A DNA stretch of 64,000 nucleotides from Nitrospirota bacterium (GTDB lineage Bacteria; Nitrospirota; UBA9217): NCBI GenBank assembly GCA_963818475.1, contig CAWFSF010000002.1, forward strand, positions 352,001-416,000, read 5' to 3'. A program made the position numbers and the translations under genes. Below, piece after piece: positions 6,509 through 64,000 of the stretch. The notes beneath the pieces were generated by a model. The model searched no databases and was not told the origin of the DNA. It worked only from the letters and a program-made list of their open reading frames with translations. The first letter of the stretch is position 1. Each line of letters starts with the position of its first letter.

Positions 6509-6532
6509 AAATCTGAAGTCTATCCGTCTTTA

Positions 6533-13213: not shown

Positions 13214-13217
13214 CTGG

Positions 13218-15836: not shown

Positions 15837-15843
15837 GGTCTAA

Positions 15844-15969: not shown

Positions 15970-15970
15970 G

Positions 15971-16942: not shown

Positions 16943-17115
16943 TATCTATCCTCCAAAAGGGTTATATACTGATTCAAGGAAGCCAGCATTGACACTGAAC
17001 GCAGATGACACGCAGATCGATAAAAATCTACATGATCAGTGTAAATCAGTGTCAAAAAATTCGATCTGGTTTTCTCCAGTGTCTCTGCGTTCTCCGTGGT
17101 GCAAAAGACTTTGCC

Positions 17116-17817: not shown

Positions 17818-17866
17818 GGTTTATTGCTCCTTTTATCTTGTACTCGTTACTCGTTAAAACAGACAG

Positions 17867-19969: not shown

Positions 19970-20029
19970 TATGAACTCCTGCCATTAATGATATTTACCA
20001 CGGAGGCACGGAGACACGGAGGAAAAACT

Positions 20030-20662: not shown

Positions 20663-20764
20663 AAGGGGAAAGCTCTAAATCCCACGCATCAAATCCAAAC
20701 AATATCAAAATTCAAAACATCAATTTCCGAAACGTTTGGTTCATTGAACCTTGGCGTTTGGAAT

Positions 20765-25722: not shown

Positions 25723-26055
25723 ACGAGACACCTGAGTGATGATTTTCAACAGTCGATATTTTGCAATATCTATACCGTCATGTAATATAAATTTAAGTTG
25801 TTATTTATCAATTTGTTACCTTTGCAGCAGGTGCCGAACCTGTCCGAAAACACTACAGACGCTGCCGGAGATTGGTCAAAATTTGGCATAATTGATTGCC
25901 CTTCTTGATTTTGCAGTATAAAGGTGTTACTCTTCTGCGCTATAGAGACCTTTCGTTGCAGATGGACCGGACGAGGTCCGGTTTTACCAGCTGTTATGCT
26001 CGGTCGATTGAGCCCAGCCATTATTTTCGGATTCACACCCCTGGATGACAATATC

Positions 26056-28830: not shown

Positions 28831-29954
28831 TCAGGAGTCCGACAAATTTATCAAGGACACATTTCTTTTTCTCATGACAGCCCAGTCCCGCTCCGTGCAC
28901 CGCCGCAGGATCTCGCCGGCCATGCTGCCGAGCGGCAGCACCTTGTCCACCGCGCCGGTCCGGATCGCCTCCTGCGGCATGCCGAAGATGACAGCGCTCT
29001 CCTCGCTCTCGGCAAGACACTGCCCTCCCTGCTTTTTGATGGCAGCTGCGCCCTCTGCGCCGTCACGCCCCATACCGGTCAGCACGACCCCCAGCGCTGC
29101 CGGCCCGCAGGCTTCGGCGACCGATACCATCATCCGGTCAGCCGAGGGCACATACTTGTCCTCCGGCGTCCGGGGCGCGAGCTCGACAACAAGCCGTTCG
29201 GTCCCTCTTTACGTACCAGCAGGTGATAACCGCCGGGCGCGATCAGCACCCGGCCGGGACGGATGCGGTCGCCGGCCTCGGCCTCGCTCACCATGAGCGC
29301 CGAGAGCTTGTTCAGCCGCTCGGCAAAGCTCCGGGTAAATCCCGGCGGCATGTGCTGCGAAATGACGATCCCGGCGCCGAATCGCTGCGGCAGCGCCGTG
29401 AGGATCGCCTGCAGCGCAGGCGGCCCGCCGGTGGAGGATGCGATAGCAACCACCTCGATCGGGCCCTGTTCCTGCGAAGCGTCGTCTTCCTTGCGGGTGC
29501 CGGCGACGGCTCTGGTCCCTGCGCCAGCAGGTCCATGGCCGACTGGACCTTGGACATTTCAGGTTCAGCACGGCATGCACCTTGGCCACCAGTTCGTCCC
29601 GGATGCCCCTCGATGCTCTGCGAGATCCGGGCTTCCGGCTTGGCCAGAAAATCGACGGCACCGAGTTCCAGGGCCCGGAACACGCTGCGGCTGTCCGAAC
29701 GGGACGAGAGGACCAGCACGGGCGTGGGCCGCTCCTTCATGAGCCAGCGCAGGAAGGTAAACCCGTCCATGTTCGGCATCTCAAGGTCGAGGGTGATGAC
29801 ATCGGGCTGGAGGCGCAGCGTCTTGGCGATGGCATCAATGCCGTCACGCGGCAACACCGACGACCTCGATGCCCGGATCGCGCTCGAGCATCTTGGTGAT
29901 GGTCATGCGGTTATATGCCGAGTCGTCGACGACCAGCACCTTGATCTTTTTCAT
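28831..29954 (-). CDS. cheB: chemotaxis methylesterase
   Basis: Receiver ([15 protein letters not shown]) plus [32 protein letters not shown]; frameshifted. Confidence 0.94.
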
Positions 29955-33554: not shown

Positions 33555-35673
33555 CTACGTTTTGAACTTCTCGATCTCTTTGTTCAGCGCGCCGGCCTGT
33601 CCGGCGATCACGTCCATGGCGACATGCAGCCCTGAAGCCAGGTCCGCGTTCGCCCGGGCGATCTCCTTGATCCGGTCGATGGCCTGCACGATGAGGTCGC
33701 TCCCTGTTTGGACCTCGCCGGCCGCCCGGTTCACCAGGCTGATCTTGGCGCTCATATTTTCAACAGCGCCGGTGATGTCTTTGCTCCCCTTCACCTGTTC
33801 ATCGGTGGAGCGCTTGACCACCCGCGTCAGTTCCCGCATCTTCTCCGCGGCGCGCATGATCTGCTCGCTGCCGGTCCGCTGCTCGGTCGTGGCCCGGGCG
33901 ATCTGGTGCGCCATGTCGTTGATCTTGTCCACGGCAGCGCCCACCTGCCGGATGCCCTGGGACTGTTCGCTCGCAGCCCGATTGATGCTCTTGCTCATGC
34001 TCCGGGACTGCCCGGCGCGCTCAAGGATCTTGGTGAGCGCTGCTCCGGCATCCTGGGAAAGCCGCACACCCTCTTCGACCATGACGGACTCTTCCCGCAT
34101 GACCTCCACCGCTTCCCGCGCTTCTTCCTGGACCGAGGTGATCAGCGCACTGATCTCCTGCGTGGAGGACGCCGTACGGTTCGCCAGCTCCCGGATCTCC
34201 GCGGCCACCACGGCAAATCCTCTGCCGTGCTCGCCGGCCTGTGCGGCAAGGATGGCCGCATTAAGGGCAAGAAGGCCCGTCTGGTCCGTGATGTCCTCGA
34301 TCACGGTCAGAATGCTGCCGATGTTCTCGGCACGCTCACCCAGGCGGTTCACCACACCGGACGTCTTGCCCGTCGACTCCGCGATCCTGTTCATGCCGTC
34401 GATCGTCTTTTCTATGGACCGCATGCCAAGCTGTTCGGCATCGGCGGCAACGGCCTCGGCGATGACCGCCGATTCCCTGGCAATGGCCTCCACTTCCCGT
34501 ACGGAAGCGCTGATCTCCGTGGTTGACGCAGCGGTTTCCTCGGCCGCCGAGGACAGGACCGCCACATTCTCGGCGATCTGCCGGACCGCGGCGGACATCT
34601 GGGTGATGGCGGTTGACGGTCTCCTCGATGGAGGAGGAGAGCTCGGACATCGTCAGGGCCACTTCCTGGATCGAGGCCGCCATCTCGATGACCGACGAGG
34701 ATGTCTGCTCGGAGGTCTCATAGATGTCTTCGACGTTCCCGGCGATCTCCTTGAGCGAATAGTGCATCTCATTCACCGACGAAGCCGCCTCTTCAACCGA
34801 CTCGGCCTGAACCCTGCTGCCGTCGGCTATTGCCGAGGATTTCTCCTGCACTTCCTTCCAGACCAGGGCGCTGTTGCCGGCGGCCTTCCGCACGTTCTCG
34901 ATCATGCCTTTCAGGCCGATGATCATGCGGTTCAGGCCGCGGCCGAGCATCCCGAGCTCATCAACGGACTTCACATGCACGCTCACCCTGAGGTCGCCGG
35001 CGGCAATGTTCGAAGCCACGGCAACGGCCTCCTTCGTGGGCGCCACGATCATTTTCCGCGACATGACGTAGAGAAGGAACGACAGCAGCAGCACGATCCC
35101 GACGCTCGTCCCGAGGAGCAAAAAAACGACATGCCGGATGTCCTGTTCAACAGCTGACGTTGCAAAACCCATGGTGACGGTGCCAAGCTTCGTCCCGCGG
35201 GGATTGATCTCGACCGCCACTTCCAGCACGTCGAACTGCCGGCGGACCTTGGCAATAAGGGCGAAAACATCGCCGGCCCCCTCCCCGGTCATGAGCGCCT
35301 TCACGTCAGGGTTGTCGCGGTTGAAGCTGACGGAGGAGGTGCTGAGCGCTGCGCCGTTGGCGTCGGTGACCACGGCGTACAGCACATCCTTTGATTTCGC
35401 CACCTCGTCGACCAGCGAGTCCAGTGCCACGAGGTTCCAGTCCAGAATGAAGTCGCTGCCCGCCTTGCCCAGGAACTGGCCGAGCTCCCGCCCCCGCGTT
35501 TCGAGGGACCGGTACTCCCCTTTCCTCAGGGTCTGCGCGACAAAGGAGGTCCCGACGACCATCAGGAGAGAAACAAAACAGGTCATGACCACCACGAGTT
35601 TCAGCCCCATGCTGGCATCGACCTTCTTCTTCAATTTGCTGGCGGCTATTTTTTCCTTGATCCTTCGTAACAT
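33555..35673 (-). CDS. methyl-accepting chemotaxis protein (2 TM, HAMP, elongated signalling domain; one frameshift)
   Basis: TM1, periplasmic domain, TM2, [41 protein letters not shown]. Confidence 0.94.
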
Positions 35674-35724
35674 GGTTCCTTTCCCTTCACCGGGGAGCCC
35701 GGGTTCCCGGCGGCGATGGCGCTG

Positions 35725-38506
35725 TCAGGCGATCAGGTGCATGAGCCTTCGTACGCCGTCGTAGTCGCTGTCCTCGGCAGGAAACGAAGCCTGTGTAATC
35801 CCGGTCGATCATGGACAGCACCTGCGCGTGGCCGGCATTGCTGCGGTCGAGTGCAATGAGCGCTTGTTTAATGGATTCAAGCGTGCCGGCGTCAAGGTTC
35901 TTCGACGCGCAGATGTTGAACTCGGGGACCTCGACAGAGGTCTTCAGCACCTTCAGTCCCTGTTCGAGAAATTTCCCTGCCGTGGACTCCATGAGCCCGC
36001 CGGCGTCATACTCGCCGGCAAGGACCGCCCGGGCAACATCATCGTGATGTCCCAGGAACGCATGGTCCTTCAGATCTTCCAGGAGGACACCTGCTTCGGC
36101 CAGCATGGAGCGGGGGATCAGATAGCTCGACGTGGACATCCGGTCACCGAAGGCGAACCGCTTCCCCCGAAGGTCCTCAAGCCGCTCGATCCCGTCCGCG
36201 GACCTTGCAACGATCGCCGCATGCGTATAGGGCAGCCCCTTGCGGAGCGCTTTTACCAGCAGCACGGCGCCGTATTTTTGGTGCGCTTCGATATAGGTTG
36301 TCGGCGTCAGAAAGGCCAGGTCCGTCACACCGTCCTCGAGGTCCCTGATCGTCTGCATGAAATCGAGGCCCACGACCAGGTCGACCTTTCGGCCAAGCGA
36401 CTGCGTCAGATATTCCGTAAGCGGCTGGAACCGCCGGTGCATCGCTGCGGGCACTTCCAGCGGGATGACCCCGAACTTCAGCCCGGTATGGAGCGCCGTG
36501 CGGGGGCCGCGGGCGCTGACGGTCATGGTAACAAGCTCCTGGTTCAATAGCGCTGCCTGTTCGTTCAGTATCTTCAATGCGCCGGCCATGCCTTCCATCC
36601 GCTTCATGGTCTGGCGCGGCAGATCCTGGATCTGCTCCATGGCATGCAGGATCTGGCTGGCGCCCTGCCGTTGTTCGCTGGTCCCGGCGGCGATCTTGCC
36701 GGCGCGCGCGGTCACGTTCTCCGCCGCCTCGGCGATCTGTCTGCCGCCGCGGCCCTGCTCCGTCAGGGTGAGGTTCACGCGGCGGGCGATGTCCCGCATG
36801 CCCTCCGAGGCCTTGAGGATGATCTCCGAACCGCTGCTCTGCGCCTGGGTGGCCGATGCGATCTGGCCCATCATCTGCTTGACGTGCGCCACCGCCTCGC
36901 TCACCTGCTTGATCCCGCGGGTCTGCTCCGTCATGGCGCGCTCGATCATGGTGGCCATCTCCGCGGACCGGCTGGCGCTTCCCACGATCTTCTCCAGCGC
37001 CGCACCGGCGTCCTGTGACCGCTGTACGCCGCGGTCAACGGCCGTCAGACTTTCGGTCATGGCGGTCACGGCCTCCTTGGCCTCCTTCTGAACCGCCGTA
37101 ATGAGCTTTGCAATGTCCTGGGCGGAACCGGCCGTCCGGTCCGCAAGGGCCTTGATCTCTCCCGCCACGACGGCAAAACCCTTGCCGTGCTCGCCCGCCT
37201 GCGCCGCCAGGATCGAAGCGTTCAGCGCCAGCAGGTTCGTCCGCTCCGTTACTTCAACGATGACGCCAAGGATCTTGCCGATCTCGCCGGAGCGCTTGTC
37301 GAGACGGGTGATAAGGCCGGAATAGCGTTCCACGGCCTCCTTGATGGTGTCCATGGCGCGCATGGTCTCCTGAATGGACCGGCTGCCGCTGTCCCGCGCC
37401 TCGAACGAGACCTGCTCCGACAGGCGCGCAGACTCCTGTGCCAGCCGCTCCACCTCGCGGATGGTCGCCTCGATCTGGATCGCCGATGACGACGTCTCCT
37501 CTGCGGCCGACGAGAGGGTCTCGGCATGGCCGGCGACCTCGCGGATGGACCCGATCATCTCGAGCACCGAGGTGGTGACGTTCTCCACCGACGAGGTCAG
37601 TTCTCCCGTGTGGCGCGCCACCTCCTGGTTCGACGCGTTCATCTCGAGGATGGCCGACGATGTTTCTTCGGCGGAGGTCGACAGGCTTCCGGCGCTCTCC
37701 GCGATCGACTGGATGGACGAGGACATCTCTCCCACGGACGTGGAGACGCTCATGATGGCATCCGCCTCGGCCTCCGAGTTCTTCCGGATGGCGCGCGAGT
37801 CTTCCGCGATCGTCGGACCCAGGTCGTTGATGCGCACCGCAATGGCGCTCATCTCGACGATGAACTGCTCGAGCCGCTCGACCAGGTAGTTCACGCCGTC
37901 GGCGAGCATGCCGATCTCGTCGTTTCTTCCGGCCTCGACGCGCTGGGTGAAATCCTTCCGGTCGATCATGCCCGTCAGCGCGTCACCCAGCGCCCTGACG
38001 CGGTCGGTCACCGTGCGGGAAAGGGAAAAGTAGAGGATGGCCGCCAGAATGAGAAAAATGAAGGCGTGTTCGAAGAGCGCGCTTATGGCATAGGCCCGGA
38101 GCCTGCTGTCGAGGTCCGCAGGATAGACGGAAAGACGGACCTCGCCCAGCCGGGTCTGTTCGGCCATGATCGGCAGCGGCCCTACCGTCAGGCGCTTCGC
38201 TGCCAGGTCCGCCCGGCCGTCACGGATGATCTCCCTGCCCGATCCGTCGGTGATCATTACCTCCTGCGCATCGGGCAGGTGCATGAAGTTCTTCGCCATG
38301 GCGTTGAGACCGCCGAAGTCCGACACCAGCAGGTACGGCGTTGCCAGTTCGGCCATGAGGCTGCAGGACTGCTCGCCCCGAATGCGGGCTTCGCTCATCA
38401 GGGCGCGTTTTTCCATGACGTAGCGGTACGCCCCGATCAGCGCCATGGTCACGAACAACCCTGCGAAGATCATGAAGATCAGTTTCTGTCGTATGCCTAT
38501 GCGCAT
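35725..38506 (-). CDS. methyl-accepting chemotaxis protein with C-terminal PhnD-like binding domain
   Basis: [27 protein letters not shown], followed in frame by [52 protein letters not shown]. Likely true end ..[15 protein letters not shown] after a frameshift. Confidence 0.92.
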
Positions 38507-41694: not shown

Positions 41695-43628
41695 CTACCA
41701 TTTCAGGGACAGGGTTGCCATCACCGTTTTCACCCGCCCGTCCTGCGTATTGTCTATCTGGTCGTCGTAACTCCGGTACTGGTACCGGACGTCGCTGCTG
41801 AGGTTCCGGGTGAACTGCATCTCGATGCCGCCCGTGTACACGCTGTCGATGACCTTGAGGTCCGAAAGCTCCGCAATGCCGGCAGTGTTGGCGCCGGCGA
41901 GCCGGAAGTTCCCGCGCGAGTAGCTCTTGCTTCCCGATGCAGTGAGGTTCACGCCGTTCACGGGAGCAATGGTCGCGCTCAGCGTTCCGACGTTGGCAAT
42001 ATCATCATAGGGAACGCCGCCGTCGAGCGCAAAAGCGCCGGATCGCGTCCTGCTCGGTCACGGTCTGATCGACCTTGTTCTGGTAATGAGAGAAGCTGGC
42101 CGTGAGCGACGACCGTTTTCCGACCAGGAACGTCATGCTGGCCAGCGCCTGGTCATGCTCGGCGTCGCGGCTCCCGCCCCCAGGGGCGATCCGACTGGTC
42201 CCGCTTCTCATTCACGACGCTGTAGCTGAGCATCGTATTGAACCAGGTCAACGGCATCCAGGTGAGCGATGCACGCGACGTAGCGGACTTGTCCGGATCC
42301 GTGGCGTAGGCCGGATTGTCGACCGAGACCGCGGTGTAGTCGGCCCGGAAGATCATTTTTTTCATGATGCGATAGGTGACGCCGAGCTTGGCCGTGCTCT
42401 TGGTCGTGCTCTCCGGCACCAGCCAGTATGCCGGTGCGCCGGCCGGGGAGGCAGCAGGGTGGAGCCCAGGAGGCCCCGCGTGCGGTCGGTCGTGTCCGTG
42501 CCGTATTCGCCCTTCAAGCGTCAGGCGGTCCGTTGCCCGGTACCGGAGCGACCCGCTCACCACATCGCGTGTGGACGAAATGGAATCGCGGACCTGAACA
42601 GCGCGGCGCCCGCTGCGGTGATGTTGTTTCCGTGGCCGGGTTGGTCACGTCATGGTCATAGTGACGGTACTTGAGCGCGAACAGCACGCTCGTGACGGGC
42701 ATGAAGATGAGATCGCCTGCGGTGTTCGTGAACTTCTCCTTGACGCGCTGTCCTCGTTCTTCTTGTCGCCGTTCGTGTAGGTCCCGGAGAGGACCACCTG
42801 CCCGAATAGGTCGTATGGACCTTCAGCGTGTCCCAGGAGGACTCCAGGTCCGGAACGAGATTGTGCGGGACCGTGAACGTGGTCAGTCCCGAAGTATAAG
42901 TGTCGTTCAGCACCTTTTCCCCGATCGCCTCGAACTTCTTTTCCGTGTGGCTGTAATCGACCTCGATCGGGCCCAGGTGGCTGTTGACGCCGACCCGGAA
43001 CTCCTCGGTGTTCCAGTCGATGTCGCGCGACTTCGAGACCTTGGTCAAGGCCGCCGCTCAGTTCGCGCAGGAACCGCTGCTGGATGCTGCCTTCCCGGTC
43101 GATGGTCCGCACTTCGGCGTAGAGATGGAAGGGGAAATCCGGGGTCTTGAACCGGAGGAACGCCCTGCCAACTGGTTGCTCGATGCCCGTAGAGGTCGAT
43201 CGGGGTTCAGGTCGGTAAAGCTCGGCGACGGCGTGGCCGGATCGTCGAACGCCGAACTGGAAATGGTTCAGATTGTGGAACAGGCTCGCGCGTGTACCCG
43301 TTGAACACCACCACGTCCTTGTAGGCGTAATCAACCTCGCCGAAATAATCCTTGGTGTTCAGAAAGGTCGGATTCGAGCACGAAGCGGTGCGGGAGCGGG
43401 TCCCACTCCAGGTCCAGCGATCCCAATGGGGCCGGACTTGAGATACTCGTACTCTCCTGCTATCGGTGTTGCCGTGTCTCGTTATGCTGCGGTAGCCCAG
43501 GCCGAATCTTGCCCTCAAAGGGCTCGCCGAGCGCGGTCGCTTCTGGCCTGTTCCTCGCTGCCTGCTGCGCAACAGCCGGGGAGGCCCAGAACATCAGGAC
43601 GCTCAATGATCAGGATCAACTTTTTCAT
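41695..43628 (-). CDS. MtrB/PioB-like outer-membrane beta-barrel (heavily frameshifted)
   Basis: Signal peptide, alternating amphipathic strands and C-terminal ..RYQYRSYDD..MATLSLKW beta-signal; follows a decaheme cytochrome. Confidence 0.78.
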
Positions 43629-44653
43629 GTACGAGCCTCCTCTATCGTATGAAGTCTGCCTTTGCCGCTCGGCGAAGGCAGGTCGGAACCATGGATCTGG
43701 GAATGACAGTCGGAGCACCGCGTGTAGAATGCCTGCTTCTGCTCGGTCGTCGTGCTGCCGTCGATCGGGTGCGTCGGATGGCACTGGAGGCAGAGGAACG
43801 GCTCGCGCGCGTTCAGCAGGTTGTTGTTCACCGATCCGTGCGGGGTGTGGCAGGCGCGGCAGTCATCGGTCAGGTCGGCATGCTCATACACAAAGGGCCC
43901 TTCCTTCTCCGCGTGGCACTGCGTGCAGGTCGCCTTCACCGTATCGCGCCGCAGGCTCTTTTCCGCTGCGCTGCCGTGCGGGATCGTGGCAGTCGGTGCA
44001 GAAGACCTTCTTTTCCGGCACCGGGTGATGGTTCGGCAGGATGAAGGCCGCCTTCACTTCCTGGTGGCAGCGTTCGCACATCTCGGCCGTGTCCCGGATG
44101 CTTCACCTTCAGGTTGTGGCCGCCGTGGATCTTGTGGCAGTCGGAGCAGGAAACGTCGGCGATGTTGTGCGATGCCCGCGTTCCAGTTGTGCAGGTTGAA
44201 GGTTGCGTTGGCCGTGTGGCACTTGAGGCAGATGAGCGACTGGGCCTGCGCCGGAAGGTTCTTGATGTCGATGAAGGTCTTGTAGTTGCAGGCCGTCATC
44301 TTGCCCGCCTTGGCGTCGGCCTGCACTCTCTCCGGCGTGATCCCGTCGACGGCAAGGCTGCCCGGCCCGTGGCAGCTTTCGCAGTTCACGATCGGCATGC
44401 CCGATTCGCGCGAGAGCTGGGCGCCCATGGTCGAGAGGTCGAAATCCTTGCGCCGCTGGTCGTGCACATGACAGGCCGCGAGACAGGTGTCCGTGCCGAT
44501 ATAGTCGGCGTCGAGCCGGCCGACGATCAGCTTCTCGTACTCCTTGATCGGCAGGATCGGCCTCGCTTCCTTGAGCGCTGCGCATCCGGCGGCGAAGAAG
44601 ACGCCGATGATCCCGGCTGCCAGCCATTTCCTCCATTTCAGAAATTGTTCCAT
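43625..44653 (-). CDS. MtrA/DmsE-family decaheme c-type cytochrome with lipobox (frameshifted)
   Basis: FAAGC lipobox. Heme motifs CLAACH (Cx3CH), CESCH, CLKCH, CSDCH, CERCH, CTDCH, CTQCH, CRACH, CLQCH, CSDCH. EKEGPFVYEH, HTPHGS and IHGSD are DmsE-type signatures. Confidence 0.9.
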
Positions 44654-46869
44654 AAAAGAAAACCTCCTTTGTCCTGAGTGTGGGTTAGGGCCGTTCTGCT
44701 TCGATGCCGAGCGACACCGTTCGGCAGTAGATACGTTGTTGCCTCGGCACAATAAACAGGCGGCGTACCGCCGGCGCAGAGCGTGTCCAGCGTTGCGCCC
44801 ACCGAATAGTTCATGACATTGTCATCGAGCCAGTCGATGGAGTCATAAATGAGCCGCTTTGTGTACATCCGGTTGTGCACATAAGCCCCGGGATCATGCT
44901 CCAGCAGGTTGAAGTTGAAAGCCGCGCCCATGTTGTTCTGACCGGTGTCGGGAGTGCCTAGAACTGCAACAGCGACATTGGCCGTACAACTGTAAGCCCC
45001 TGCGACCCCTGACAGCGTAAAGGTTGAGCTGCCGCCGGTCTGCCAGTTCCTGACAGGTAGGTTTAATGTCGTCGTACAGTCCGAGGTTATCGCTTGGTTA
45101 TACGTAGTATCGAAACCCGGTGCAATGAAGAAGTAAGGGCTGTAGGGAGCAAAGAAGATCCCGCGAATTGCAAGTTGGTCCTTTAACGCTTCGATGGACT
45201 CGGTAAACTGAGCCTTCTGTTCTCTCACGAGGTCGAGGATAAGCGTCGTGGATGGGCCGTGGCAATTGAAGCAAACCTCGCTTGCGATGCCGGTGATCTG
45301 TCCGATCGAGGTTGTGCTCCGGGAGACCGGCAGGAACAGATGGTTCCCGTTCTTGTTCGGACGGGACATGTGGCAGCCGATGCAGGGACCGTTGGAGCCC
45401 GTATTCACAAAAGGCGGAAGCTTCTGCGTGGCTGCGGTGCCGATCTTATCATGGAGATATTCCGGAATGTTGTTGTAGGGCCGTCCGGGAAATTCGTAGC
45501 CCGTGACCGTGAAGACCTGTCCGCCGGCGGTCAGATAGTGGGAATTGATGAACCCGCTGTTTGCAAAGTTAAACGTGGTGATGGTTCCCACGGACAGCAG
45601 CGCCGGATCGTTCAAGCCTCTTACCGTGTCGCCACTTTCCCTGCCCGTGTGGCAGGCCATGCAGACGTTCGATCCTGCAAGGTCCGGGTAGGCGTGCGAG
45701 GCCTTGGCATAGATCTTGGGGGACGTGCCGTAATCATACTTCGCCGTGATCGCCCCGGGGTTCCTAAGAGCCCCCTTGTTGTCCGTGTGGCAACCGTTGC
45801 ATTTGAGCATCTCGGGTTTCCAGTTGAAAGAAGTAGTAGCACTGGAAAACTGCGAATTGAGGCCGCTGTTGATGTCGCTTGCGAGCTTGGCGTCCCCGGA
45901 CCTAAGCGCATCCGCGTAAGCAGTGTAGCCGGTGGTCGTGTGACAGCGCTGGCAAGCGTTGTATGAGCTTGCGCCCCAGGCATAGTGAGCCCAGGCGCCG
46001 CTGAAATAGCCGGTTCCGGTCGAGTTTAAGTTAAAAGGATTCTTGTCGGCATGCGCCGATTGCGCCCATTCTCTGTTCTGCGTGGGCGGTTTGTGAGGAT
46101 TGTGGCAGTTCACACAGACCTTCTTGTCGCTGTAGTCCGTTCTGTAAATACCCTGCGCATCCCGATAACTCATGGAATAGCCGGTAATGGCCTTGGTGCC
46201 GGAGTTTCCGATGCCAGTCCAGTCACCTGGAGTTGCAAAGTGCGTGTCCGTAATGCTGAACTGGTTGCCGCTTGCACTCAGCTCATCTGTTCCGCCGGGG
46301 TCATGCGCTGCTGGCGCGGTTCCTGTGCCCGTCGTGTCCAGCAACCCATGGCAGGAGGTGCACATGACGAACTGGGCTGAGGCCTGGACCGTGCCGGTGC
46401 CCCAGGTAACGGGAGGCGTGTCGGGAATAACAGAGATGGGCCCCATCCCGCCCGCACCCGCGTGCAGGCTTCCCCCGCCATGGCAGGTTTCGCAGCCGAT
46501 AACCGGTCGCAGGATGCCGGCAGCACCGAGATAGCCCGGGGTGAGCTTGCCGCTGTCCCCGTTCGGGTCATGGCAGGCCACACATTCGACTCCTCCTGCC
46601 TGTACCTGAGCAAACGTCGGACTCCCCACGCTGTACAGGTCACCCGGCGTACTCAGGTTCGCATGCTTGCTCGTCAGCCAGTCGGCGACCATCGCCGTAT
46701 GGCACGTGGCGCACGTGGCCAGTCCGACAGTCGGCGTTGATGCCGTTAGCACGTTTTCTGTTGCCGTGGGGGTATTCTCCTCTGTTGAGGAGCCGCACCC
46801 GGCGAGCAGGGCGGCCGCAGACATCACGGCCAGAAGCAGAAATACCATTCTTCGTTTATGCATATGCAA
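44638..46869 (-). CDS. OmcB/OmcC-like multiheme lipoprotein cytochrome c (10 CxxCH)
   Basis: LLAGC lipobox, ten CxxCH motifs, NSHYLTAGG and C-terminal GAAFNFNLLEHDPGAYVHNRMYTKRLIYDSIDW resembling Geobacter OmcB; 3' end approximate. Confidence 0.88.
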   Translation of the reverse strand: MHMHKRRMVFLLLAVMSAAALLAGCGSSTEENTPTATENVLTASTPTVGLATCATCHTAMVADWLTSKHANLSTPGDLYSVGSPTFAQVQAGGVECVACHDPNGDSGKLTPGYLGAAGILRPVIGCETCHGGGSLHAGAGGMGPISVIPDTPPVTWGTGTVQASAQFVMCTSCHGLLDTTGTGTAPAAHDPGGTDELSASGNQFSITDTHFATPGDWTGIGNSGTKAITGYSMSYRDAQGIYRTDYSDKKVCVNCHNPHKPPTQNREWAQSAHADKNPFNLNSTGTGYFSGAWAHYAWGASSYNACQRCHTTTGYTAYADALRSGDAKLASDINSGLNSQFSSATTSFNWKPEMLKCNGCHTDNKGALRNPGAITAKYDYGTSPKIYAKASHAYPDLAGSNVCMACHTGRESGDTVRGLNDPALLSVGTITTFNFANSGFINSHYLTAGGQVFTVTGYEFPGRPYNNIPEYLHDKIGTAATQKLPPFVNTGSNGPCIGCHMSRPNKNGNHLFLPVSRSTTSIGQITGIASEVCFNCHGPSTTLILDLVREQKAQFTESIEALKDQLAIRGIFFAPYSPYFFIAPGFDTTYNQAITSDCTTTLNLPVRNWQTGGSSTFTLSGVAGAYSCTANVAVAVLGTPDTGQNNMGAAFNFNLLEHDPGAYVHNRMYTKRLIYDSIDWLDDNVMNYSVGATLDTLCAGGTPPVYCAEATTYLLPNGVARHRSRTALTHTQDKGGFLLWNNF

Positions 46870-46948
46870 TACCCTCCTTCACAAATTGGCAATGTATTTT
46901 TTATCGGGCAGGAAAACGGCACGTACACCGCCCTCCCTGCGTCCGCTC

Positions 46949-48894: not shown

Positions 48895-50904
48895 TTACGA
48901 GTATTGTCTCGTAACTCCTGCTTTTCTGAACGCTCCTTCGATGAGCGACTCCACGTCCAGAACGAGCACAACGCCCCGCTTGTCGCCGAGCTCGGTGGCG
49001 CCGGCGATGCCGGGGATCTCCGCCAGCCGCTTCCCGAGCGGTTTGATCACGATCTCCTGCTGGTCTTTGAGCCCTTCCACCACGATCCCGAGACGGCGCT
49101 CCGCAAGGCCGACAAGAATGACATAGAACGATCCGAACCGCTGCTCCCCGGCCAAATTGAAGGCCCGCGTAAGCCGAAGCAGCGGAACGGTGTCTTCCCG
49201 GATGGCGATGACCTCGCGCGTTTCCACGGTCCGCACCTGGTCCGGTGTGGCCTGCAGGATCTCGAGCACGGCGTTGAGCGGGATGGCGAACACCTGGCCG
49301 GCCGCCTCGACGATCAGCGCCTTGATGATGGCGAGCGTGATCGGGAGCGTCAGCGTGAACCGTGTTCCCACGCCGAGCTCGGTCTCGATGTCGATCATAC
49401 CGGAGAGCCGCGAGACGTTCTTTTTCACGACGTCCATGCCCACGCCGCGGCCGGAGATCTCGGTCACCGTATCGCGGGTGGTGAAGCCCGGCAGGAAGAT
49501 AAGATCGAGAATGTCCTTGCGGTCGATCACCGGATCGAGCCCGTGGTCGCTCTCAAGGATGCCCTTTTCGCACGGCCTTGGCCAGGATCGCTTCGGCCGA
49601 TATGCCGGCGCCGTCGTCCTCGACCGTGATCACCACGTGGTTGCCGCGCGGGAACGCCGTGAGCCTGACGCTGCCCTGCTCCGGCTTCCCGACCTGCCGC
49701 CGCACCTCGGGCGGTTCGATGCCGTGATCGATGGCGTTCCTGATGAGGTGCATCAGCGGGTCCGCAAGGTCTTCGATCATGAGCTTGTCGAGCTCCGTCT
49801 CTTCGCCCTGAAGCTGCAGATCGATCTCCTTGCCCGCATCCTTGGCGTATTTGCGGACCACCGACGACAGGCGCGTAAAGATCTGGCCGATGGGCACCAT
49901 CCGGACCTCGAGGATGCCCTCCTGCAGTTCGTTCAGCTTCCGCTCGAGGCTCTTGTGCGCCTTGTGCAGCTCCACGGAGATGCCGGTATAGCCCTGGAGC
50001 TGCCGCAGTTCCTTCACGATCCTGCCGATGATGTTCTTGGTCAGATGCATCTCGCCGACGGTGTTCATGAGGCTGTCGAGGCGGAAGATGTCGACGCGCA
50101 CGGTATTGCTCACGGATTTGAGCATCGTTGCTTCGGGTTTCGCTTCTTCGGCCTTCGCGCCCTGGCGGTACGCCACCGGCTCGATCGAGACGTTCGGCAG
50201 GGCCAGGGCCGCGGTCAGCGCGGCGCGGTCCTTTGGCGTGCCGAGGACCATGGTAAAACCGATGCCGCTGCCCTGTGCGCCTGCGGTCGGCAGGGTGCAG
50301 ATGATCTCGCCGTTCTTCTTGAGCGGTCTCGTTCAGGGCCTTGATCCCGGCTTCGAAATCAGTGAGCTCGTACGACAACCTTGACCATGAACAGGTTCGT
50401 TCGCTCTCGGATGTTCTCCTTCAGCCGGTATTCCTCGTACTCCGTCAGGACCTGCAGGATCCCCCGGTCGAGATCGATCTGCTCCAGCAGCGACCGGCCC
50501 TCTGCTGCCGAGGGTTTTGCCTTCAGGACCGCGTCAATGCGTTCCATGGCCGGGGTGATGTCATCGCTCGGCTGGCGGGCAGCCACCTGCTGCACCAGCC
50601 GCCCGATGAGCGAAAGCGTCTCGAGCACCACATCCAGGGCCTGCCGGCCCAGAGCGACCTTGCCGAGCCTGAGTTCGTCCAGCAGGAACTCCAGCTTATG
50701 CGTGATGTCCGACGGGGCCTTGAGCCCGTACATCCCGGCCAGGCCCTTGAACGAATGAACGGCGCGGAACAGCGAGTTCAGGACGTCCGGGTCGGTGCGG
50801 CCCGCGGCCAGGGCGTTCTCGAGCGACAGCAGCGCCTGGTTGGCCGTCTCCAGGATGTCCTCCGCCTCTGCCAGAAAATCTTTTATGGGCCGGTCTGAAG
50901 TCAC
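48895..50904 (-). CDS. cheA: chemotaxis histidine kinase (frameshifted)
   Basis: Hpt LFRAVHSFKG, VRVD..LDSLMN, HLIRNAIDHG, EDDGAGI, FLPGFTT..SGRGVGMDVV, C-terminal CheW domain. Confidence 0.95.
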
Positions 50905-50998
50905 GCTATCGCTCCCGATCAAATGCGGATCAAATGTGGAATGCACGCATATGTCCTACAGGCTTTCTCGCTCCGAACTCCGAACTCCAGGCTCCGCA

Positions 50999-53525: not shown

Positions 53526-54222
53526 TCACTGTTCAATAACTTCCGTTCCCTTGGGCGCTTTGAACACGAAGCGCTTGTCGTCGATGCCTGCGCCTTCCCG
53601 CATGTCGGAAAAAATAATTTCCGTCCTGTTCCCCGTTTTGTCCAAAATATCAAGCGAAGCAATGCGGCCGGCGTCATCGGACCCGAGGATCAGTTTTTTC
53701 ATGGCAGCGCCGGTCTTTTTCGGGACCAGTTCGAGCCGCCGCGGAGCTGTTGGATCGGGCTGGCGCACCTCGAAATCGTCGCGGATATGCGCTGCGCCCA
53801 GCAGGAACGCAACGGGAATGTTCATCTGCTCGATATCGGAAAAGGTCTTCTTGACGACCTGCTCGCTCTTCAGGGAATAGAACAGCGCTGCCTTGCCATC
53901 GACCAGGATGACCTGGCCGTTCGTGTAGTCAAGGCGCAGCCTGCCCGGCTTTTTGATCCAGAGCACAGCCTCAAAGGTCTGCGTCTTATCGAGCGACTTG
54001 AGGTGGTTCTTCTGGACCACTTTTGCCGTAAGGTCAATGAGTTCCCGGTAATGGTTCTCGACGGCCAGAACCGCCTCCTCAACGGACTGAGCTGCTGCCG
54101 GCGGCACGAACGCGGCTGCGACTAGAGCGAGGAAGAAGGCTGCCGCTGCAAGAATTCGTTCTTTCCCTGCAGGAGCACCGGAGGATACCTTTGAGTTCGT
54201 TTGTTCGATTAGTAGTTGCCAT
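53526..54222 (-). CDS. lolA: outer-membrane lipoprotein carrier LolA (start approximate)
   Basis: Signal peptide, IKKPGRLRLDY..ILVDG, LELVPK, DKTGNRTEIIF, FVFKAPKGTEVI. Confidence 0.88.
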
Positions 54223-54442
54223 GTTCTTCTCCAATGTGTAGCATCATACCATAAATAATTTTCCCTGAGAAGATAGAAAAGAACAGGTCTTGATGACTCG
54301 TGGCAGACTGTTTCACTCAGGGGCACTGAGGGAACAGAGAGAGCGGCGGCGTTTTCAGATCGATTATCGACCTGCAGGTTTTTACTGTTAACGAATGCAT
54401 CAACCTTGACAATACCCTGTCTCACGATTATCATGCAGCCTT

Positions 54443-57101: not shown

Positions 57102-57318
57102 AACCCGCCCCCCGCTCTCTTGTCCTGGTGAATTTTTATATCATACTCCAAGTGAGCCGTCCAATCAAGTGGGGGAGCAAAAAGGAACACGGGGGGACAT
57201 CCTTGTGTTCGCCGCTTACGGTTGTCAAACGTTCTGCGGTAAATGAAAGAGAAATAGAACGTAGAGAAAACGATCAGCGTAACGGAGAGCATATTTTTCT
57301 ATACGCTGCCAAAAATAA

Positions 57319-57374
57319 AAACCTCCTGCTAAGAATTAGTTTATGACGGAACTAATTCAAGAGGCAGGAGGTTT
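57319..57374 (-). terminator. long hairpin downstream of the giant surface-protein gene
   Basis: AAACCTCCTGC..GAATTAGTT-loop-AACTAATTC..GCAGGAGGTTT, followed by a T-run on the minus strand. Confidence 0.65.
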
Positions 57375-57449
57375 ATATGAACTGTATTGACATCAGACCT
57401 GAGCAGTTTCTTCACTGCAGAAACCGCCATTATTACCACCGCCTACGCC

Positions 57450-60400
57450 TTAGTTGCAGGACGAAAGCAGCGCCAGAATGAAGATAGATGCCAGCAATTT
57501 TAGCGCGAATGACCGGCGTCCTGCCTGAACAGGCCGTGGAAGTTCTATAAATCCCGAGGACATCTTTCGCTTCATGATGAGCGCCAGCAACACCAATTCG
57601 ATCACCATAAGGAATGTCCACGGATATTCTATTGCATAAATAAGTGGTGTCAGAATTAATCTCGTCATCATTCTCAAGATATCATGCTGCCTGATAAAAG
57701 CTGCGACCGGCGGTGAGTGCCGGTAATAGGTACTTACGAAGAGCCTTCCGGGACCATTCGTCAGGAGGTATTTATCCCTGAAATCGCGAAGCACTTTGAC
57801 ATGAGGATCGAGATACGAGCCGTATGCCGCAGTCGCAATGAAGCAACCGCCGCCCCCGCCTCCGCCGCCGGCACCACTGTTCCCGGTCCCGCCTCCGTCT
57901 CCAGATGCCAAGCCTGTGCCGGTCAGCGCGACCGAGATGGCGTTTTTGTCCGGATCGGTCGATGCGATGTTCAGAGTTGCCGACCTTGTTCCTTCAGCAG
58001 AGGGGGTGAATCTCAGAAAGATGCTGCAGCTGCTGCCGGCACTTTTGCTGCTGGTGCAGTAATTGGAGGAAATCGAAAATTCCGAGGAATTGTCTCCTGC
58101 TATAGTGAAATTGTTCAGCAGTAATGAATCATTTCCATTATTCGTTATTGTGAGCGTCCGGGCACCGGGCACCAAGCCGATATACGCAGTTCCAAAATCG
58201 AGCGAGGATGCGCTTAAATCGGCCACCGGCTGCTGCCCGGTGCCGCTCAGCGCAATATTCATCGTCGGCCTGTTGGGGTCATTCGTGGTCAACGCGATGG
58301 TTGCTCCCCTCGCAAATGCGCCTTGCGGTTCGAAGGTCACCGTAAACGTGCAGTTCTGGTCGGGATTGATCGTGGCCGAAGACCCGCAGGTGCCTCCTAT
58401 GTTGAAATCTCCCGGGTTCGTTCCTGTTACTGCGCTGGAAATGTTCAAAGGAGCTGTCCAGACATTCTTTACTGTTACCGTTTGCAAAGACGAAAGGCTT
58501 CCCCGCTTAACAGTGCCGAAATTCAGGAACGCGGGACTGAGCGAAATCTCGGGCTCCGGTGCCGGTGCGCTGACTGGCGTCAGTGTCGGGGTCTGCAGAA
58601 TAAAGCCGGCAGATCCATAATTCCCGCCTACGATAACAAACGTATTATTGCCGAATGCTCCACTGTTAATCGAGCCGGTCCCGCCTGATATCCTCAGGGT
58701 CCAGGTCCGGGCGTCATTCGAGGACAACAGGGTGCTACCGCCGAAGACAAGATAGGTATTGTTTCCGAAAGCAGCTCCGTAGAGAGAGCTCGAAGTTCCC
58801 GATGACCGGCTGGTCCAGAATTCCGTGCCGCTCGATGTATACAATGTTCCCAAATAGCTGGTAGCAACCGTTACCCCGTTCCCGAAGGCAAGCGCATCGA
58901 GGCTGTAGCTGCTGTTCGTGGGCCTGGAGTTCCAGGTCGCGCCGTCCGGGGAGGTCCAGGCAGTGCTTTGAGAGCCGGAACCGATAAAGACACTGTTGAC
59001 GAAAGTGACATCGTACAATGTTGGAGTTGCTGCATGGAGACTCCAGGATGTGCCGTCTGGGGACGTAGCGGTCAGGTCGTAACCAGTGGCGACAAATGTT
59101 CCGTTCCCGTAAGCAACATGGTCCAAGTCCGAGGCAGTGCCGGAGTTCTGGGCAGTCCACGTCGAACCGTTGAGTGAGGTTATTATTGCGCCGGAGTCAC
59201 CGACAGCAACATATGTTCCGTTTCCATATGCCACCGAACTAAGCAGCCGGGTTGTCCCAGTCATCCGGGAAGTCCAGTTCACTCCGTCAGAAGAAGTCAC
59301 AATGGTGCCGTTGTTTCCTACAGCAACAAATCCATTATTCCCGTAGGTCACGCCGTACAGTTGATGCTCGTAGGAATCGGGGACCCATGACGTCCAGGTG
59401 ATGCCGTTCGGAGAAGTAAGGATTGCACCGTAATTGCTGATCACGGCGAATTCGTTATTGATAAACCGTACAGCCTTGGGGGTGATCGGCCCGCCGAAAG
59501 ACCGCGCAGTCCAGACAGCGCCGTCCGTGGAGGTGAGAAGCGTGTTGTTCGTTCCGACAGCGACGAACACGTTGTTCCCGAAGGCCACGCCGATCAGGTT
59601 TTCCGCAGTGTTGGAAGTCTGCAACGTCCAGTCCGTTCCTTCATTATTAGTGTTTTGATTCGGCGAGGTGTTTACGGACCTGTAGATCGTGCCGCGAGTG
59701 CCGACGGCCACGAAGGCATTGTTCCCATAGGCAACTCCGGAAAACTGATCCGGGTCAATAAACAACCGCTGTATTACGCCCGCGGCACTGTACGTCCATA
59801 TTTTCCCCCCATAACCCACATAGTAAGCTCCGGCAACCACATATGTGTTGCTGTTCGGGCTGTACGCTACTCCAGTCAGTTTATAATCGATAGTCGAGTT
59901 GACCGTTGTCCAGTTTTCACCGTCCGTTGATTTCGCGATGCCATAGCCGACTGCTACGATAGCGGGGACTCCACCGCTGCCAATGGTGACATCCGACCCG
60001 GTGGCCAGGCTGTAAAGACTGATCGCCACCTGAGTGCCCGCAGTCCAGTTCGTTCCAGTCGTTGAAGTATAAGTTTCTCCGTTCTCGTTGACGCCGACGA
60101 ATTTCCCATTGAAATACATCACACTATTGAAACCATATTGAGGGCTGGCAAAAGTATCTTCAATCCACTCGTGCTTGTCAGCTGATGTCAGGACGGCATT
60201 GACCTGCGTTGTGAATGGCACATTCGTCCGACCGAATGCCGCATACATCCCATTGCCGTAGGCAATGTCGGCAGTAGACACGGGAAACATTCTTGGTTTC
60301 CACGTGTACAGGGGGTCCGTCAGAGACGGCGCGGACCTCACGGCCTGCAACTGCTTGCTCTCCTTTTGATCTGCCGGACCTGCTGTCGTACTGGTGCCAG

Positions 60401-63400
60401 GCGAGCTGCAGCCGCTGACGAAGACGGATATGAAACAAAGAATCGAGATAAGACGCATTGCCGGAACCTGTTCCATCTGGCAATTGAAGCTGCCTCCGGC
60501 GACAACGCCTGACCACCGGCTTTCGGATACTCTTCTCAAATTCGCAGCAGTCATCATAACGGCCATACCAAAACAAAGCATCAGGAACAGATTCGGATAT
60601 GCCAAAGCAAGAACTACCGGTGTGAGCAGCATCCGTGTTATTGCCCGAAGTACCTCGCTCTGCCTGATGAAGTCGGCTATCGGCGGCGAGTGCCGGTAAT
60701 AGGTACTTACGAAGAGCCTTCCGGGACCATTCGTCAGGAGGTATTTATCCCTGAAATCGCGAAGCACTTTAACATGAGGATCGAGATAAGAGCCGTATGC
60801 AGCCGTGGCGATGAAGCAACCGCCGCCCCCGCCTCCGCCCCCGCCGCCTGCACCGGAATTGCCTGTGTCGCCGGTGCCCGAACCGACGCCAGTGCCCGTA
60901 ACAGTAACCGCAACGGTTGAATTGTCAGGATCATCTGATGATACTGAAATCGTGGCGGACTTCGCGCCTGATGATGCCGGAGCAAAGGTGATCGTCTTCA
61001 TGCAGCTCCCCGTCGTAATGGGGCTCGAGCAGCTCGTACTGCTCAGACCGAACTCCGAAGCGTTCGGCCCGCTGATGCTGATCCCGGTGACCGTCAAGGG
61101 GGCCGGCGTGCCGCCGGTGTTGTTGATTACAAGATAGCCCGCGGAAGAAGACCCGACATTTACGCTCCCTAGATTGCTCGGGCTGGCTGTAACCACGATA
61201 TGGGGCTGAACGCTGTTGCCGTTGAGCGGGATGTTTATGGTCGGGTGATTGGGATCATTAGTCGTGAGCACGAGGCTGGCAACGCGACTGCCCGCTCCCG
61301 CCGGAATAAAGGTCACCTCCAGGCCGCAGCTCCCGTCGGGTGCGACCGTGAAGGAGCCTGAGCTGCTGCACGTGCCCGCCGCGACGCTGAAGTCCCCGGT
61401 ATTCGTCCCCGTGACAGAGGTGGCAACGTTGAGATCTCCGGTCCAGGTATTCGTGATGGTCAGGGTCTGAGCGGTTGAAGAGCTCCCGCGGTTCACGCTG
61501 CCGAAACTGAAGTAGGTTTTGTCATAGGTTATCTCCGGTTCGACGGGAGGCGCAGCAACCGTCGCAAGGGGTGCGGACTGAAATATCTGACCAAGATCTC
61601 CGACAGCGACGAAGCTGTTGTTGCCGAAGGCAATACCCTGCAGCAGCGTGATTGATTCGACCGGGTTCGTGTTCCACGTGCGGCCGTCATGAGAACTGAA
61701 CACCTGATCGCTTCCGCCGATGGCGGCGAACGTATTGTTGCCGAAGGCCACGCTGAACAAATCGGAGCTTTGGTAAACTGCCATTCGCTGTGTCCAGTGC
61801 ACGGAACCGCTCGAGGTGTAAACATTTTTGTCGTCCCCGACCGTCACCATTGCGCCGTTACCGAAGGCCGCTGAGTACAGATAGGGGACATTGGCCGTGA
61901 TTTCGTTTCGCTTTGTCCAGACTGCACCGTCGGCAGAGGTGTAAATGCCGGAGTATTCACCCACGGCCGTGAAAATACCATTGTTGAAAGCAACACCCTT
62001 CAGATCCTGGATCAGCCCGACAGTCTGCGGAATCCAGCTGGAACCATCAGCAGACGTATAGACCACGCCATTTGTCCCGTTCGTACCCACTGCCACGAAC
62101 ATGTTATTCCCGAAGGCCACGCTTTCAAGGACATTGGGTGCAGAGGCCTCCGCCACTGACCAGGTAATTCCGTCCGAGGAGGTTGTGATAGCTCGCCCAA
62201 CTGCTACATATTTTCCGTTGCCATAGGTCAGCGCATACAGGTCCTGGGTAGTGTTCGAAACGCGTCCGCCCCAGGTTGCTCCGTCGGTCGACGTAAGAAT
62301 CGTGCCGTACGTCCCGACGGCAACGAACAGATTGTTCAGGTAAGCGACATCTTTGATATTGCGATACTGAGAACCCAGGCTGACCGTGGCATTGTAGCCG
62401 GCAAAGACAGGATTCCAGGCTGTGCCCGTGGAGCTTGACATCATGCCGGCCCCCAAGGCGTACAGCGTGTTGTTCATTATGGCCAGACGCGTCGGCTGCT
62501 CATCGAGGCTATAGTTCCTTGCGGTCCAGGTGGTGCCGTTCGGCGAGGTATAATAGCGCCCCGGTCCGTTCGGCGCCGCATTGCTGTATTCGCTTACCAC
62601 GAAGAGACCATTGATATACTCTATGTCCCAGAGGATGCCGGCCCCATTGATAACCGTTGTAGATTGGACTTTAGTCCAGGTGAGTCCGTCCGTCGAAGTT
62701 GAGTAAACGCCGCCATCACCGACAGCAACGAACTTGTTGCTGCCGTTGTATGCGATACTGTAGAAATTCGGCGACATTCCTACATCCGATGGGACCTCAC
62801 GGGCTGTCCAGACGGACCCTGTCGGCGAGGTCACAATGTTGTCGTCGGATACCCCCATAAACTGGCCGTTCACGAAGATGACTTTTTTTATCGGAAGCGG
62901 ATAGAAACCCGCGTCTATGGCTGTCCAGTTGATCCCGTCTGTTGATCGAATAACGTATCCGTCCAGGGTTGTCGCAACAAAAACTCCATTGCCATACTCG
63001 ACATCCAGCAGCATATCCAGGGGATAATTGTAGGGAGGACTTAACGGGAGCGTCGGCGTTGTCCAGGTAATAAGATCGGTCGATGTCATTATCCGGGCGC
63101 CGCCGCTCCCGCCGGCAGCTACCGCAATTCCATTCCCGATCGCGACTCCGCTCAGGGCATAACCGCCCTGGGGCCGATGGGTCCAGGCAATCCCGTCGGT
63201 TGAGGTAAGGATCGCGTCCGCTCCGCTCTTGCTGCCGACGGCAACATAACGATAAACTCCGTTTACGGTGCCGCTCGCCGCAGACTGAAGGCTCGTCAAG
63301 GGAAAGCTTCGCGGGTACCAGGTGTTCAAAGGACCGGTGCCCGTGGTGTAGGTCATGATCGGGGAGGCAAGCGCCTTCTCCCTGCGGTCCCCTGCTGGCG

Positions 63401-63479
63401 TCTGGTTTTCCAATTTGCTGCAGCCGGAAATAATAAACAGCAAGGATGCGAGGAAGCAAAATAAAACTTTTCTTATCAT
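57450..63479 (-). CDS. 2009-aa surface lipoprotein of two tandem modules (beta-propeller repeats + 2 Ig-like domains + CFI-box-CTERM), with internal lipoboxes
   Basis: N-terminal IISGC lipobox, many (Y/F)GNxxFVAVG..TSxDGxxW repeats, ASH/choice-of-anchor-D-like domains, [12 protein letters not shown] twice, internal FVSGC and terminal LSSC. Confidence 0.88.
57715..57797. repeat. 83-bp perfect direct repeat (partner 60688-60770) within the CFI-box-CTERM coding region
   Basis: GAGTGCCGGTAATAGGTACTTACGAAG..CGCGAAGCACTTT is identical in both copies; near-identity continues about 70 bp further. Confidence 0.9.
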
Positions 63480-64000
63480 GATATTCGTCCCCCTGATATG
63501 TAATACTTTTTTATTATTTTATTTTATTTGATTATACGAAAACTCGCAAGCAGAAATACTGGGAAAACGGGGTATTTTTAGGGTATTTTTTTATGAAAAG
63601 TTGAACTTTGTGCAACAAATTGTGAACCAGCCCCTGGGATTAGAGTTGCCTTTTTAATACGTTGTTTTTTAACGCTACGCTTATCGGACTTGGCAATACT
63701 GCTGCTCGGTGAATTTTCCGCCATGTTTTTTGGGAAACCAGAAAGGATTATACGGTGATTTTAACCTTTATGAGCTCTATGATTGTTCACAGCAGCCCCG
63801 GAGAAACGTAGTTGTTGACGTTACGCGGTGAAATCAATGATGCCCGGCCATACGCTCTGCCGATGAACCCAGCATGCTTATATTGAATCGTTGTCTGAAT
63901 TTCGCGAAATTGTCTTGGGGGAAAGAAACAACTGGTGAGGCTGGTCATGAGAACTCAGCTGCAGCAATTTCCGAAGCCTGGCCCCGGTATGCCCGGGCTC

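Follow-up and report, generated by a model that had tools for sequence, protein, structure and literature searches.

Two lipobox-led CFI-box-CTERM modules in one open reading frame of a Nitrospirota bacterium, a possible in-frame fusion of tandem paralogues

The window analyzed here is a 64,000-nucleotide stretch of a Nitrospirota bacterium contig (CAWFSF010000002.1, positions 352,001 to 416,000), and on its minus strand a single open reading frame (ORF), 57450..63479, encodes two complete CFI-box-CTERM modules in one chain. The ORF has 2009 codons plus a stop, begins with ATG, and contains no internal stops in the ORF listing; there are no undetermined bases (N) anywhere in the window. Each module follows the same plan, with a lipobox signal, propeller-like repeats, two choice-of-anchor-D immunoglobulin (Ig)-like domains, a poly-Gly run, a CFI-box-CTERM domain and a transmembrane (TM) helix. 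An earlier sequence-only reading had described this as one open frame of repeated lipobox, passenger, CFI-box and TM units, and this description stands: all of the protein strings it quoted are present, the domains are confirmed by NCBIfam, and arithmetic from the ORF coordinates places Cys1024 at 60408-60410 and Met1008 at 60458 as it had given them. The explanation that we favor, tentatively, is that the ORF arose by an in-frame stop-loss fusion of tandem paralogues, and that its product may be threaded out-in-out through the membrane and resolved at the internal lipobox by Lgt and LspA. The features of the ORF and its flanks are as follows.

63488..63493, minus strand: Shine-Dalgarno-like GGGGGA, 8 nt upstream of the ATG (anti-Shine-Dalgarno duplex -9.4 kcal/mol)
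Further upstream of the GGGGGA, minus strand: AT-rich promoter-like region (from sequence)
63420..63479, minus strand: signal 1 with lipobox ISG-C, residues 1-20, Cys20 (hydropathy and lipobox pattern)
61560..63347, minus strand: passenger 1, ~13 propeller-like repeats of ~40 residues, residues ~45-640 (11 motif matches; Pfam DUF6242)
60885..61544, minus strand: two choice-of-anchor-D / HYDIN-type Ig-like domains of module 1, residues ~646-865 (NCBIfam, Pfam)
60819..60848, minus strand: poly-Gly 1, residues 878-887 (from sequence)
60612..60818, minus strand: CFI-box-CTERM 1, residues 888-956, internal, 1122 residues from the C-terminus (NCBIfam, local hidden Markov model)
60540..60599, minus strand: TM1, residues ~961-980, where the TM of the family sits (hydropathy, alignment)
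60459..60539, minus strand: linker 1, residues 981-1007, 27 residues, basic, no in-frame stop (sequence, alignment)
60408..60458, minus strand: internal signal 2, Met1008 to Cys1024, lipobox VSG-C (hydropathy, consensus)
58590..60302, minus strand: passenger 2, propeller-like repeats, residues ~1060-1630 (10 motif matches; module alignment)
57912..58562, minus strand: two choice-of-anchor-D Ig-like domains of module 2, residues ~1640-1856 (NCBIfam at 1741-1844; Pfam at 1643-1738)
57846..57869, minus strand: poly-Gly 2, residues 1871-1878 (from sequence)
57639..57845, minus strand: CFI-box-CTERM 2, residues 1879-1947 (NCBIfam, local hidden Markov model)
57573..57623, minus strand: TM2, residues ~1953-1969 (hydropathy)
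57513..57572, minus strand: linker 2, residues 1970-1989, net charge +5 (from sequence)
57453..57512, minus strand: third signal-like helix with lipobox LSS-C (Cys2008) and Asn2009, followed by the stop at 57450-57452 (hydropathy, sequence)
57311..57374, minus strand: intrinsic-terminator-like hairpin, then a U-run (folding)
57687..57875 and 60660..60848, minus strand: 189-nt direct repeat over the two CFI boxes (92% DNA identity)

Several patterns emerge from the protein as a whole. Five hydrophobic clusters (mean Kyte-Doolittle value of at least 1.8 over 15 residues) are present, at residues 1-24, 946-980, 1005-1027, 1953-1972 and 1990-2009, and their order along the chain is signal, TM, signal, TM, signal. 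A loose lipobox pattern has six matches, three of which fall on the hydrophobic signals, with ISG-C20, VSG-C1024 and LSS-C2008 each ending a hydrophobic segment; two others are the poly-Gly-Cys opening each CFI box (Cys888 and Cys1879), and the sixth (Cys826) lies inside an Ig-like domain. Both CFI boxes are full length by the CFI_box_CTERM model of NCBIfam (NF041770), which matches two stretches of the protein with a score of 210.8 bits (cut-off 40); the better stretch, residues 888-956, covers profile positions 1-69 of 69, and a local CFI-box hidden Markov model (HMM) run on the window finds two copies, both in this ORF, and no others. The choice-of-anchor D model (NF012200) scores 235.2 bits against a cut-off of 45 in four stretches, and the Pfam matches are to HYDIN/VesB-like Ig, Cep192_D4, ASH and DUF6242. 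The repeat motif TS.DG..W is matched 11 times in module 1 and 10 times in module 2 at a spacing of ~40 residues, which suggests that each passenger has about 13 propeller-like blades. A sequence search of the PDB returned no matches to module 1, and the best match to the CFI-box profile there (E 0.095) is not significant. Overall, the two modules share 39% amino acid identity (401 of 1023 columns, E 5e-166), in contrast to the 92% DNA identity of their CFI boxes, and this difference suggests either gene conversion between tandem copies or strong constraint.

The CFI-box-CTERM domain had been taken to be normally a C-terminal one, and a survey of 275 CFI domains in 273 non-self proteins (local HMM over all fetched proteins) bears this out, with a median distance of 103 residues from the CFI Cys to the C-terminus and a 5-95% range of 95-132. 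The distance is 135 residues or less in 263 of these domains and longer in 12; in the window ORF it is 1122 residues for copy 1 and 131 for copy 2. The family is large, with 19,373 representatives at E <= 0.001, of which the best 150 were examined. Alignment of 31 sequences shows the TM and then a basic cluster after the conserved box, and the Cys and 18 other columns are invariant. The window ORF shares other traits of the family, with an N-terminal export signal (signal 1) and Gly-rich spacers (residues 878-887 and 1871-1878) before the invariant Cys, and the N-terminal signal that is usual in lipoprotein substrates is present for Cys20 alone, Cys1024 and Cys2008 being internal. Taken singly, each module is a normal member of the CFI-box-CTERM and choice-of-anchor-D families, and it is the whole ORF that departs from the defining C-terminal position of the CFI-box-CTERM family, in its copy 1.

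The closest relatives have the usual single-module form. P0261 (1010 residues) is 49% identical to module 1 over 96% coverage, and P0123 (1009 residues) shows 47% identity to module 1 and 39% identity to module 2; in both proteins the chain ends 103-104 residues past the CFI Cys. They share with the modules described here the lipobox signal, the propeller-like repeats, the two choice-of-anchor-D domains, the poly-Gly, the CFI box, the TM and the basic tail, but in the window ORF module 1 runs into a complete second module, and module 2 adds an extra signal-like helix. Among 119 non-self proteins examined as longer relatives of module 1, two have a CFI motif and none is a multi-module protein of this subfamily.

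At the first junction, module 1 reads through the 27-residue basic linker (net charge +2) into signal 2 without a stop in frame. The LRR of linker 1 (frame 1) aligns with the post-TM basic cluster of the 30 other CFI proteins in the alignment, and the layout of the linker appears to be that of one gene ending and another starting, with a ribosome site in the spacer between them, minus the stop. The putative ribosome site is a GGAGG (60493-60497); the Met1002 ATG (60476) follows it by 16 nt and Met1008 by 34 nt. At Met1008 itself the anti-Shine-Dalgarno energy is -4.2 kcal/mol, compared to -9.4 kcal/mol at Met1 and -9.4 to -12.5 kcal/mol at four of seven neighboring starts, and the upstream score is at about the 25th percentile among 29 internal ATGs; with so weak a Shine-Dalgarno sequence, module 2 probably depends on read-through. 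A sequencing error at this junction has little room. Past TM1, no stop interrupts the observed frame 3 for more than 100 codons and the only usable stop of frame 2 directly follows the TM, so that a single-indel (insertion or deletion) origin is confined to about 12-15 nt, where 0.003-0.005 indels are expected, and the module 1 tail that it would restore is without the basic cluster present in every aligned relative. Linker 1 contains no homopolymer runs of four or more. By a rough estimate, junction 1 is likely to be real.

The second junction is of a different character. The ORF ends in LLSSCN, with the stop one residue past the third lipobox Cys, no reading frame continues beyond it, and the hairpin and U-run lie ~75-140 nt past the ORF end, within a 161-nt segment that has a minimum free energy of -51.3 kcal/mol and a z of -3.46; there is therefore no third passenger. 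Of the third unit proposed in the sequence-only reading, the signal with its lipobox is present, whereas the module behind it is not, with only Cys-Asn-stop before the terminator. The third signal has no start codon directly before it, the nearest in-frame ATG (Met1973) is without a Shine-Dalgarno sequence (-1.0 kcal/mol), and we read the helix as a putative vestige of a lost third module. In frame after the stop, at 57395-57449 on the minus strand, the DNA reads GVGGGNNGGFCSEETAQV and then a stop, a Gly-rich run ending in Phe-Cys that faintly resembles the poly-Gly-Cys opening the CFI boxes; a third module since deleted may have left it behind, or it may be a matter of chance. A single indel within about 24-30 nt could make junction 2 from a canonical tail, and reversing it would restore a tail of the form KRK..RDL and a stop ~102 residues after the Cys, leaving a 37-codon mini-ORF from Met1973; because of this, junction 2 is weaker evidence than junction 1. 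It had been argued that the same junction occurring twice speaks against a one-off sequencing fusion. The layout does recur, but the force of the argument is reduced, with junction 2 providing only a signal and Cys-Asn-stop and having a possible single-indel origin.

A database search for CFI boxes that run through a TM and a linker into a lipobox shows that the junction recurs elsewhere, with a new signal in 11 of the 273 proteins (a rate that is qualified below) and a lipobox Cys at the internal signal in four of them (P0094, P0133, P0014 and P0089). Eleven of the 12 long-tailed CFI domains are followed by a TM, a basic linker, a signal-like second hydrophobic helix, and further protein. AxA-like sites are located at the internal signal of six (P0444, P0127, P0250, P0017, P0021 and P0219), and the internal segment of P0004 is signal-anchor-like; the signals of P0017, P0021, P0219, P0250 and P0444 resemble those cut by signal peptidase I. 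NF041770 scores above its cut-off in all 10 fused examples tested, and does so twice in P0004 and P0127. With 51% identity between its halves over 1009 columns, P0004 is itself a fusion of paralogues, and is the only one to match the window ORF in that. These read-through proteins thus share with the window ORF the succession of CFI box, TM, basic linker, new signal peptide and more exported protein in one ORF, but they have other passengers and belong to other lineages, and are therefore independent fusions rather than orthologues. P0014 and P0127 are each represented on two contigs. P0094 (1644 residues) and P0529 (1647 residues) differ from each other inside the TM and linker and are both fused, as are P0014 and P0089, which share 59% identity over the body and 55% over the tail; conservation of the fused state is seen in these two lineages only. 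In P0014 and P0089 the frame continues from the CFI box into a small lipoprotein with its own lipobox signal and a domain of DsbC_N type (PF10411). We note that this DsbC_N-type partner adjoins a domain whose first residue is the invariant Cys, and may hint at thiol chemistry at that position.

The simplest route to the fusion would be a point change that lost the stop of the first gene, the two genes happening to share a frame, and the terminal signal peptide would be a leftover of a third, since-deleted paralogue. In the chain that results, signal 1 would carry passenger 1 across the inner membrane, CFI-box 1 and TM1 would act as a stop-transfer anchor, the basic linker 1 would remain cytoplasmic, and signal 2 would restart translocation such that passenger 2 is periplasmic too; TM2, linker 2 and the third helix would then repeat the pattern. 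By hydropathy only, there are two membrane spans between passengers (TM1 plus signal 2, and TM2 plus signal 3), with linker charges of +2 and +5, and the predicted topology is self-consistent and fits the positive-inside rule, in agreement with the out-in-out threading suggested in the sequence-only reading. If junction 1 is real, threading of this kind is probable.

With this topology, the internal lipobox would lie at the outer leaflet, as an N-terminal lipobox does, and Lgt and LspA would most likely lipidate Cys1024 and cut before it, giving two lipoproteins with the hairpin of TM1, linker and signal 2 staying on module 1; granted the topology, we lean somewhat towards a cut at Cys1024. 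The available text of PMC8048626 gives a lipobox consensus of [LV][ASTVI][GAS]C, the form of which is matched by the internal VSG-C and LSS-C, and describes recognition by Lgt of the lipobox Cys of a bilayer-embedded signal at the outer leaflet, followed by cleavage by Lsp before the modified Cys. We infer that action of Lgt and Lsp as described there needs no free N-terminus of the signal. Fusions of this sort would be topologically neutral and self-resolving, which would explain their recurrence in the family. If a sorting enzyme removes the CFI domain, as the name of the domain implies, then existing machinery would fully resolve the fused chain; we know of no sorting enzyme for CFI-box-CTERM, and no candidate was found in the window.

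Several observations weigh against this reading. The 90% cluster of the ORF has one member, on one contig of 850 kb, in a collection of 5.8 billion proteins, and no orthologue was found among relatives that are at best 47-49% identical. A whole-protein scan of genome contigs, a collection without the window's own genome, gave 55 pattern matches and nine relatives, none of them an orthologue and each a propeller-repeat protein at no more than 41% identity; the CFI box is absent from all nine propeller-relative loci examined. Because the closest relatives are ordinary single modules, the ORF appears to be a fusion of two genes rather than a representative of a conserved polyprotein family. The rate of 11 in 273 comes from lists partly ranked by a junction-containing query, with one list restricted to long proteins and no control family, and without such a control it cannot be called above a general rate of neighbor fusion. 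Codon-usage scores are low in linker 1 (0.02, the 5th percentile of coding windows) and linker 2 (-0.22), which fits young coding sequence and is no proof of it, the linkers being too short for such scores to decide. A literature search, in which subscription journals are thinly covered, found no report of LspA cutting a natural internal lipobox. Lastly, nine ordinary genes within 55 kb are broken into pieces by at least 12 changes of frame (Pfam on stop-to-stop ORFs), a rate of 0.22 per kb as a floor and likely about 0.35 per kb. The rlmN gene lies in three frames, and cdhD, the ACS beta subunit, folE, cheB, cheA, a methyl-accepting chemotaxis protein (MCP) gene and an FdhA-like gene are also split (e.g. 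25909-27126 on the plus strand, and 8855-10193, 6536-8848, 20101-20674, 28834-29902, 48898-50955 and 33558-35724, all on the minus strand). Homopolymers were considered as the cause and rejected, with two of nine frameshift zones containing no run of four or more and the run density in the ORF equal to that of the rest of the window. The window looks like part of a long-read metagenome-assembled genome (MAG) with residual indels, and because at least 12 frameshifts fall in these nine housekeeping genes, a sequencing origin of the junctions stays in contention on the DNA by itself.

That origin would make the two modules separate genes, an indel or base error having removed or bypassed the stop of module 1 and likewise that of module 2. 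The density of frame changes and their independence of homopolymers, the single copy among 5.8 billion proteins, the weak coding signal in the linkers, and the short indel target at junction 2 all agree with it. Against this, junction 1 demands an indel in its 12-15 nt and yields a tail without the basic cluster, the same plan is reproducible in other assemblies, and indels are much likelier to interrupt an ORF than to join two, whereas here the frame remains open over 6 kb, although at the measured rate that outcome (P = 0.12-0.27) is unremarkable. An assembly artefact is, on balance, improbable. A real fusion that is never cut would be a ~200 kDa polytopic inner-membrane protein with four or five spans, two periplasmic passengers and unused internal lipoboxes. 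It accounts for the same sequence facts as the favored explanation, it fits with our finding no known natural case of LspA action at an internal site, and with a C-terminal TM anchor on each module, membrane attachment would need no release. However, both internal lipoboxes match the consensus exactly, the downstream signals of other fused proteins keep lipobox or AxA-like cleavage motifs, and the available description of Lgt and Lsp places their action on the outer-leaflet side, at a distance from the N-terminal end of the signal (PMC8048626), such that we consider an uncut product unlikely.

The ORF could also be a real fusion that functions as two genes, in which most of module 2 comes from initiation inside the ORF, at Met1002 or Met1008, and the chain made by read-through is a tolerated by-product. 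The surviving GGAGG upstream of Met1002, and the Met that most fused relatives keep just before the internal signal, speak for such initiation. Usual spacing between a Shine-Dalgarno sequence and its start is 5-10 nt, and the spacings of 16 nt and 34 nt here fall outside it; Met1008 also ranks low among the internal ATGs, and translating ribosomes would presumably occlude the site, making this the least convincing account of the ORF, with little chance of being correct. A broader proposal is that CFI-box-CTERM proteins include natural polyproteins that run out-in-out through the membrane, are cleaved by housekeeping signal peptidases at internal lipobox or type-I signals to give at least two exported proteins in a fixed ratio, and are kept by selection, as the pairs P0014/P0089 and P0094/P0529 might indicate; we regard it as doubtful. 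The in-frame fusion of tandem paralogues, resolved at its internal lipobox by Lgt and LspA, is thus put forward as a possibility and as the preferred reading.

The remainder of the window contains genes of recognizable types. Regions 1-20000 and 43628-46878 (minus strand) encode a Wood-Ljungdahl set (FTHFS, CODH/ACS subunits, MTHFR and a corrinoid-type pterin-binding protein) together with an MtrC/MtrF-like multihaem cytochrome. In the FdhA/NuoG-like gene there is an in-frame TGA at 2893-2895 (minus strand), which we take to be at the selenocysteine codon position of formate dehydrogenases, and a second in-frame TGA at 1626-1628 (minus strand), between Molybdopterin and Molydop_binding pieces that share a frame, which may be a base error or recoding. 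An Rfam scan of the window found nothing, no search being aimed at selenocysteine insertion (SECIS) elements, and a tRNA scan of the window found nothing. A 939-residue ORF at 35687-38506 (minus strand) contains a HAMP domain, an MCP signalling domain and a C-terminal phosphonate-binding-type (PhnD-like) domain, and its last ~30 residues look out of frame; it was considered as a second read-through and rejected, its parts having no signal between them. The LolA-like gene located at 53529-54440 fits a diderm having lipoprotein sorting.

The known lipoprotein substrates of Lgt, LspA and Lnt have N-terminal signals, in contrast to the ORF described here, in which two of the three signals are internal, after 1007 and 1989 residues. 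Literature searches found nothing on CFI-box-CTERM or internal lipoboxes, a weak blank given that most subscription journals lie outside the search coverage, and nothing relevant on internal signals in polyproteins or prolipoproteins. The cytochrome b/c1 precursor FbcH of Bradyrhizobium is a polytopic bacterial precursor that is cleaved at an internal signal peptide, unconfirmed by our literature search; it differs in its use of type I signal peptidase and in the unrelated proteins involved. In the viral envelope polyproteins hepatitis C virus core-E1 and SFTSV Gn/Gc, the available texts (PMC5402940, PMC5113920) describe an internal signal, located after a membrane anchor, at which translocation starts again and host signal peptidase cuts. 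The working principle of an anchor and then an internal signal is the same, but those proteins are processed in the eukaryotic endoplasmic reticulum by signal peptidase I, have no lipobox, and show no sequence relationship to the window ORF.

When a MAG contains this many frameshifts, a striking ORF in it should be confirmed at the level of reads before being accepted, and the value of the finding is more in a plan that recurs across the family than in the single ORF. If the internal lipobox is used, lipoprotein maturation enzymes would accept signals far from the N-terminus, and if the polyprotein reading is true, the ORF would be the first case in which two full lipoprotein modules are combined with an internal LspA site. 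A simple rule may account for the recurrence, in that a gene ending in a TM and a cytoplasmic tail could be joined without harm to a gene downstream of it that opens with a signal peptide. The second protein would escape gene callers and predictors of signal peptides if these consider only the N-terminus. Were the reading correct, bacteria would make exported polyproteins in the manner of enveloped viruses.

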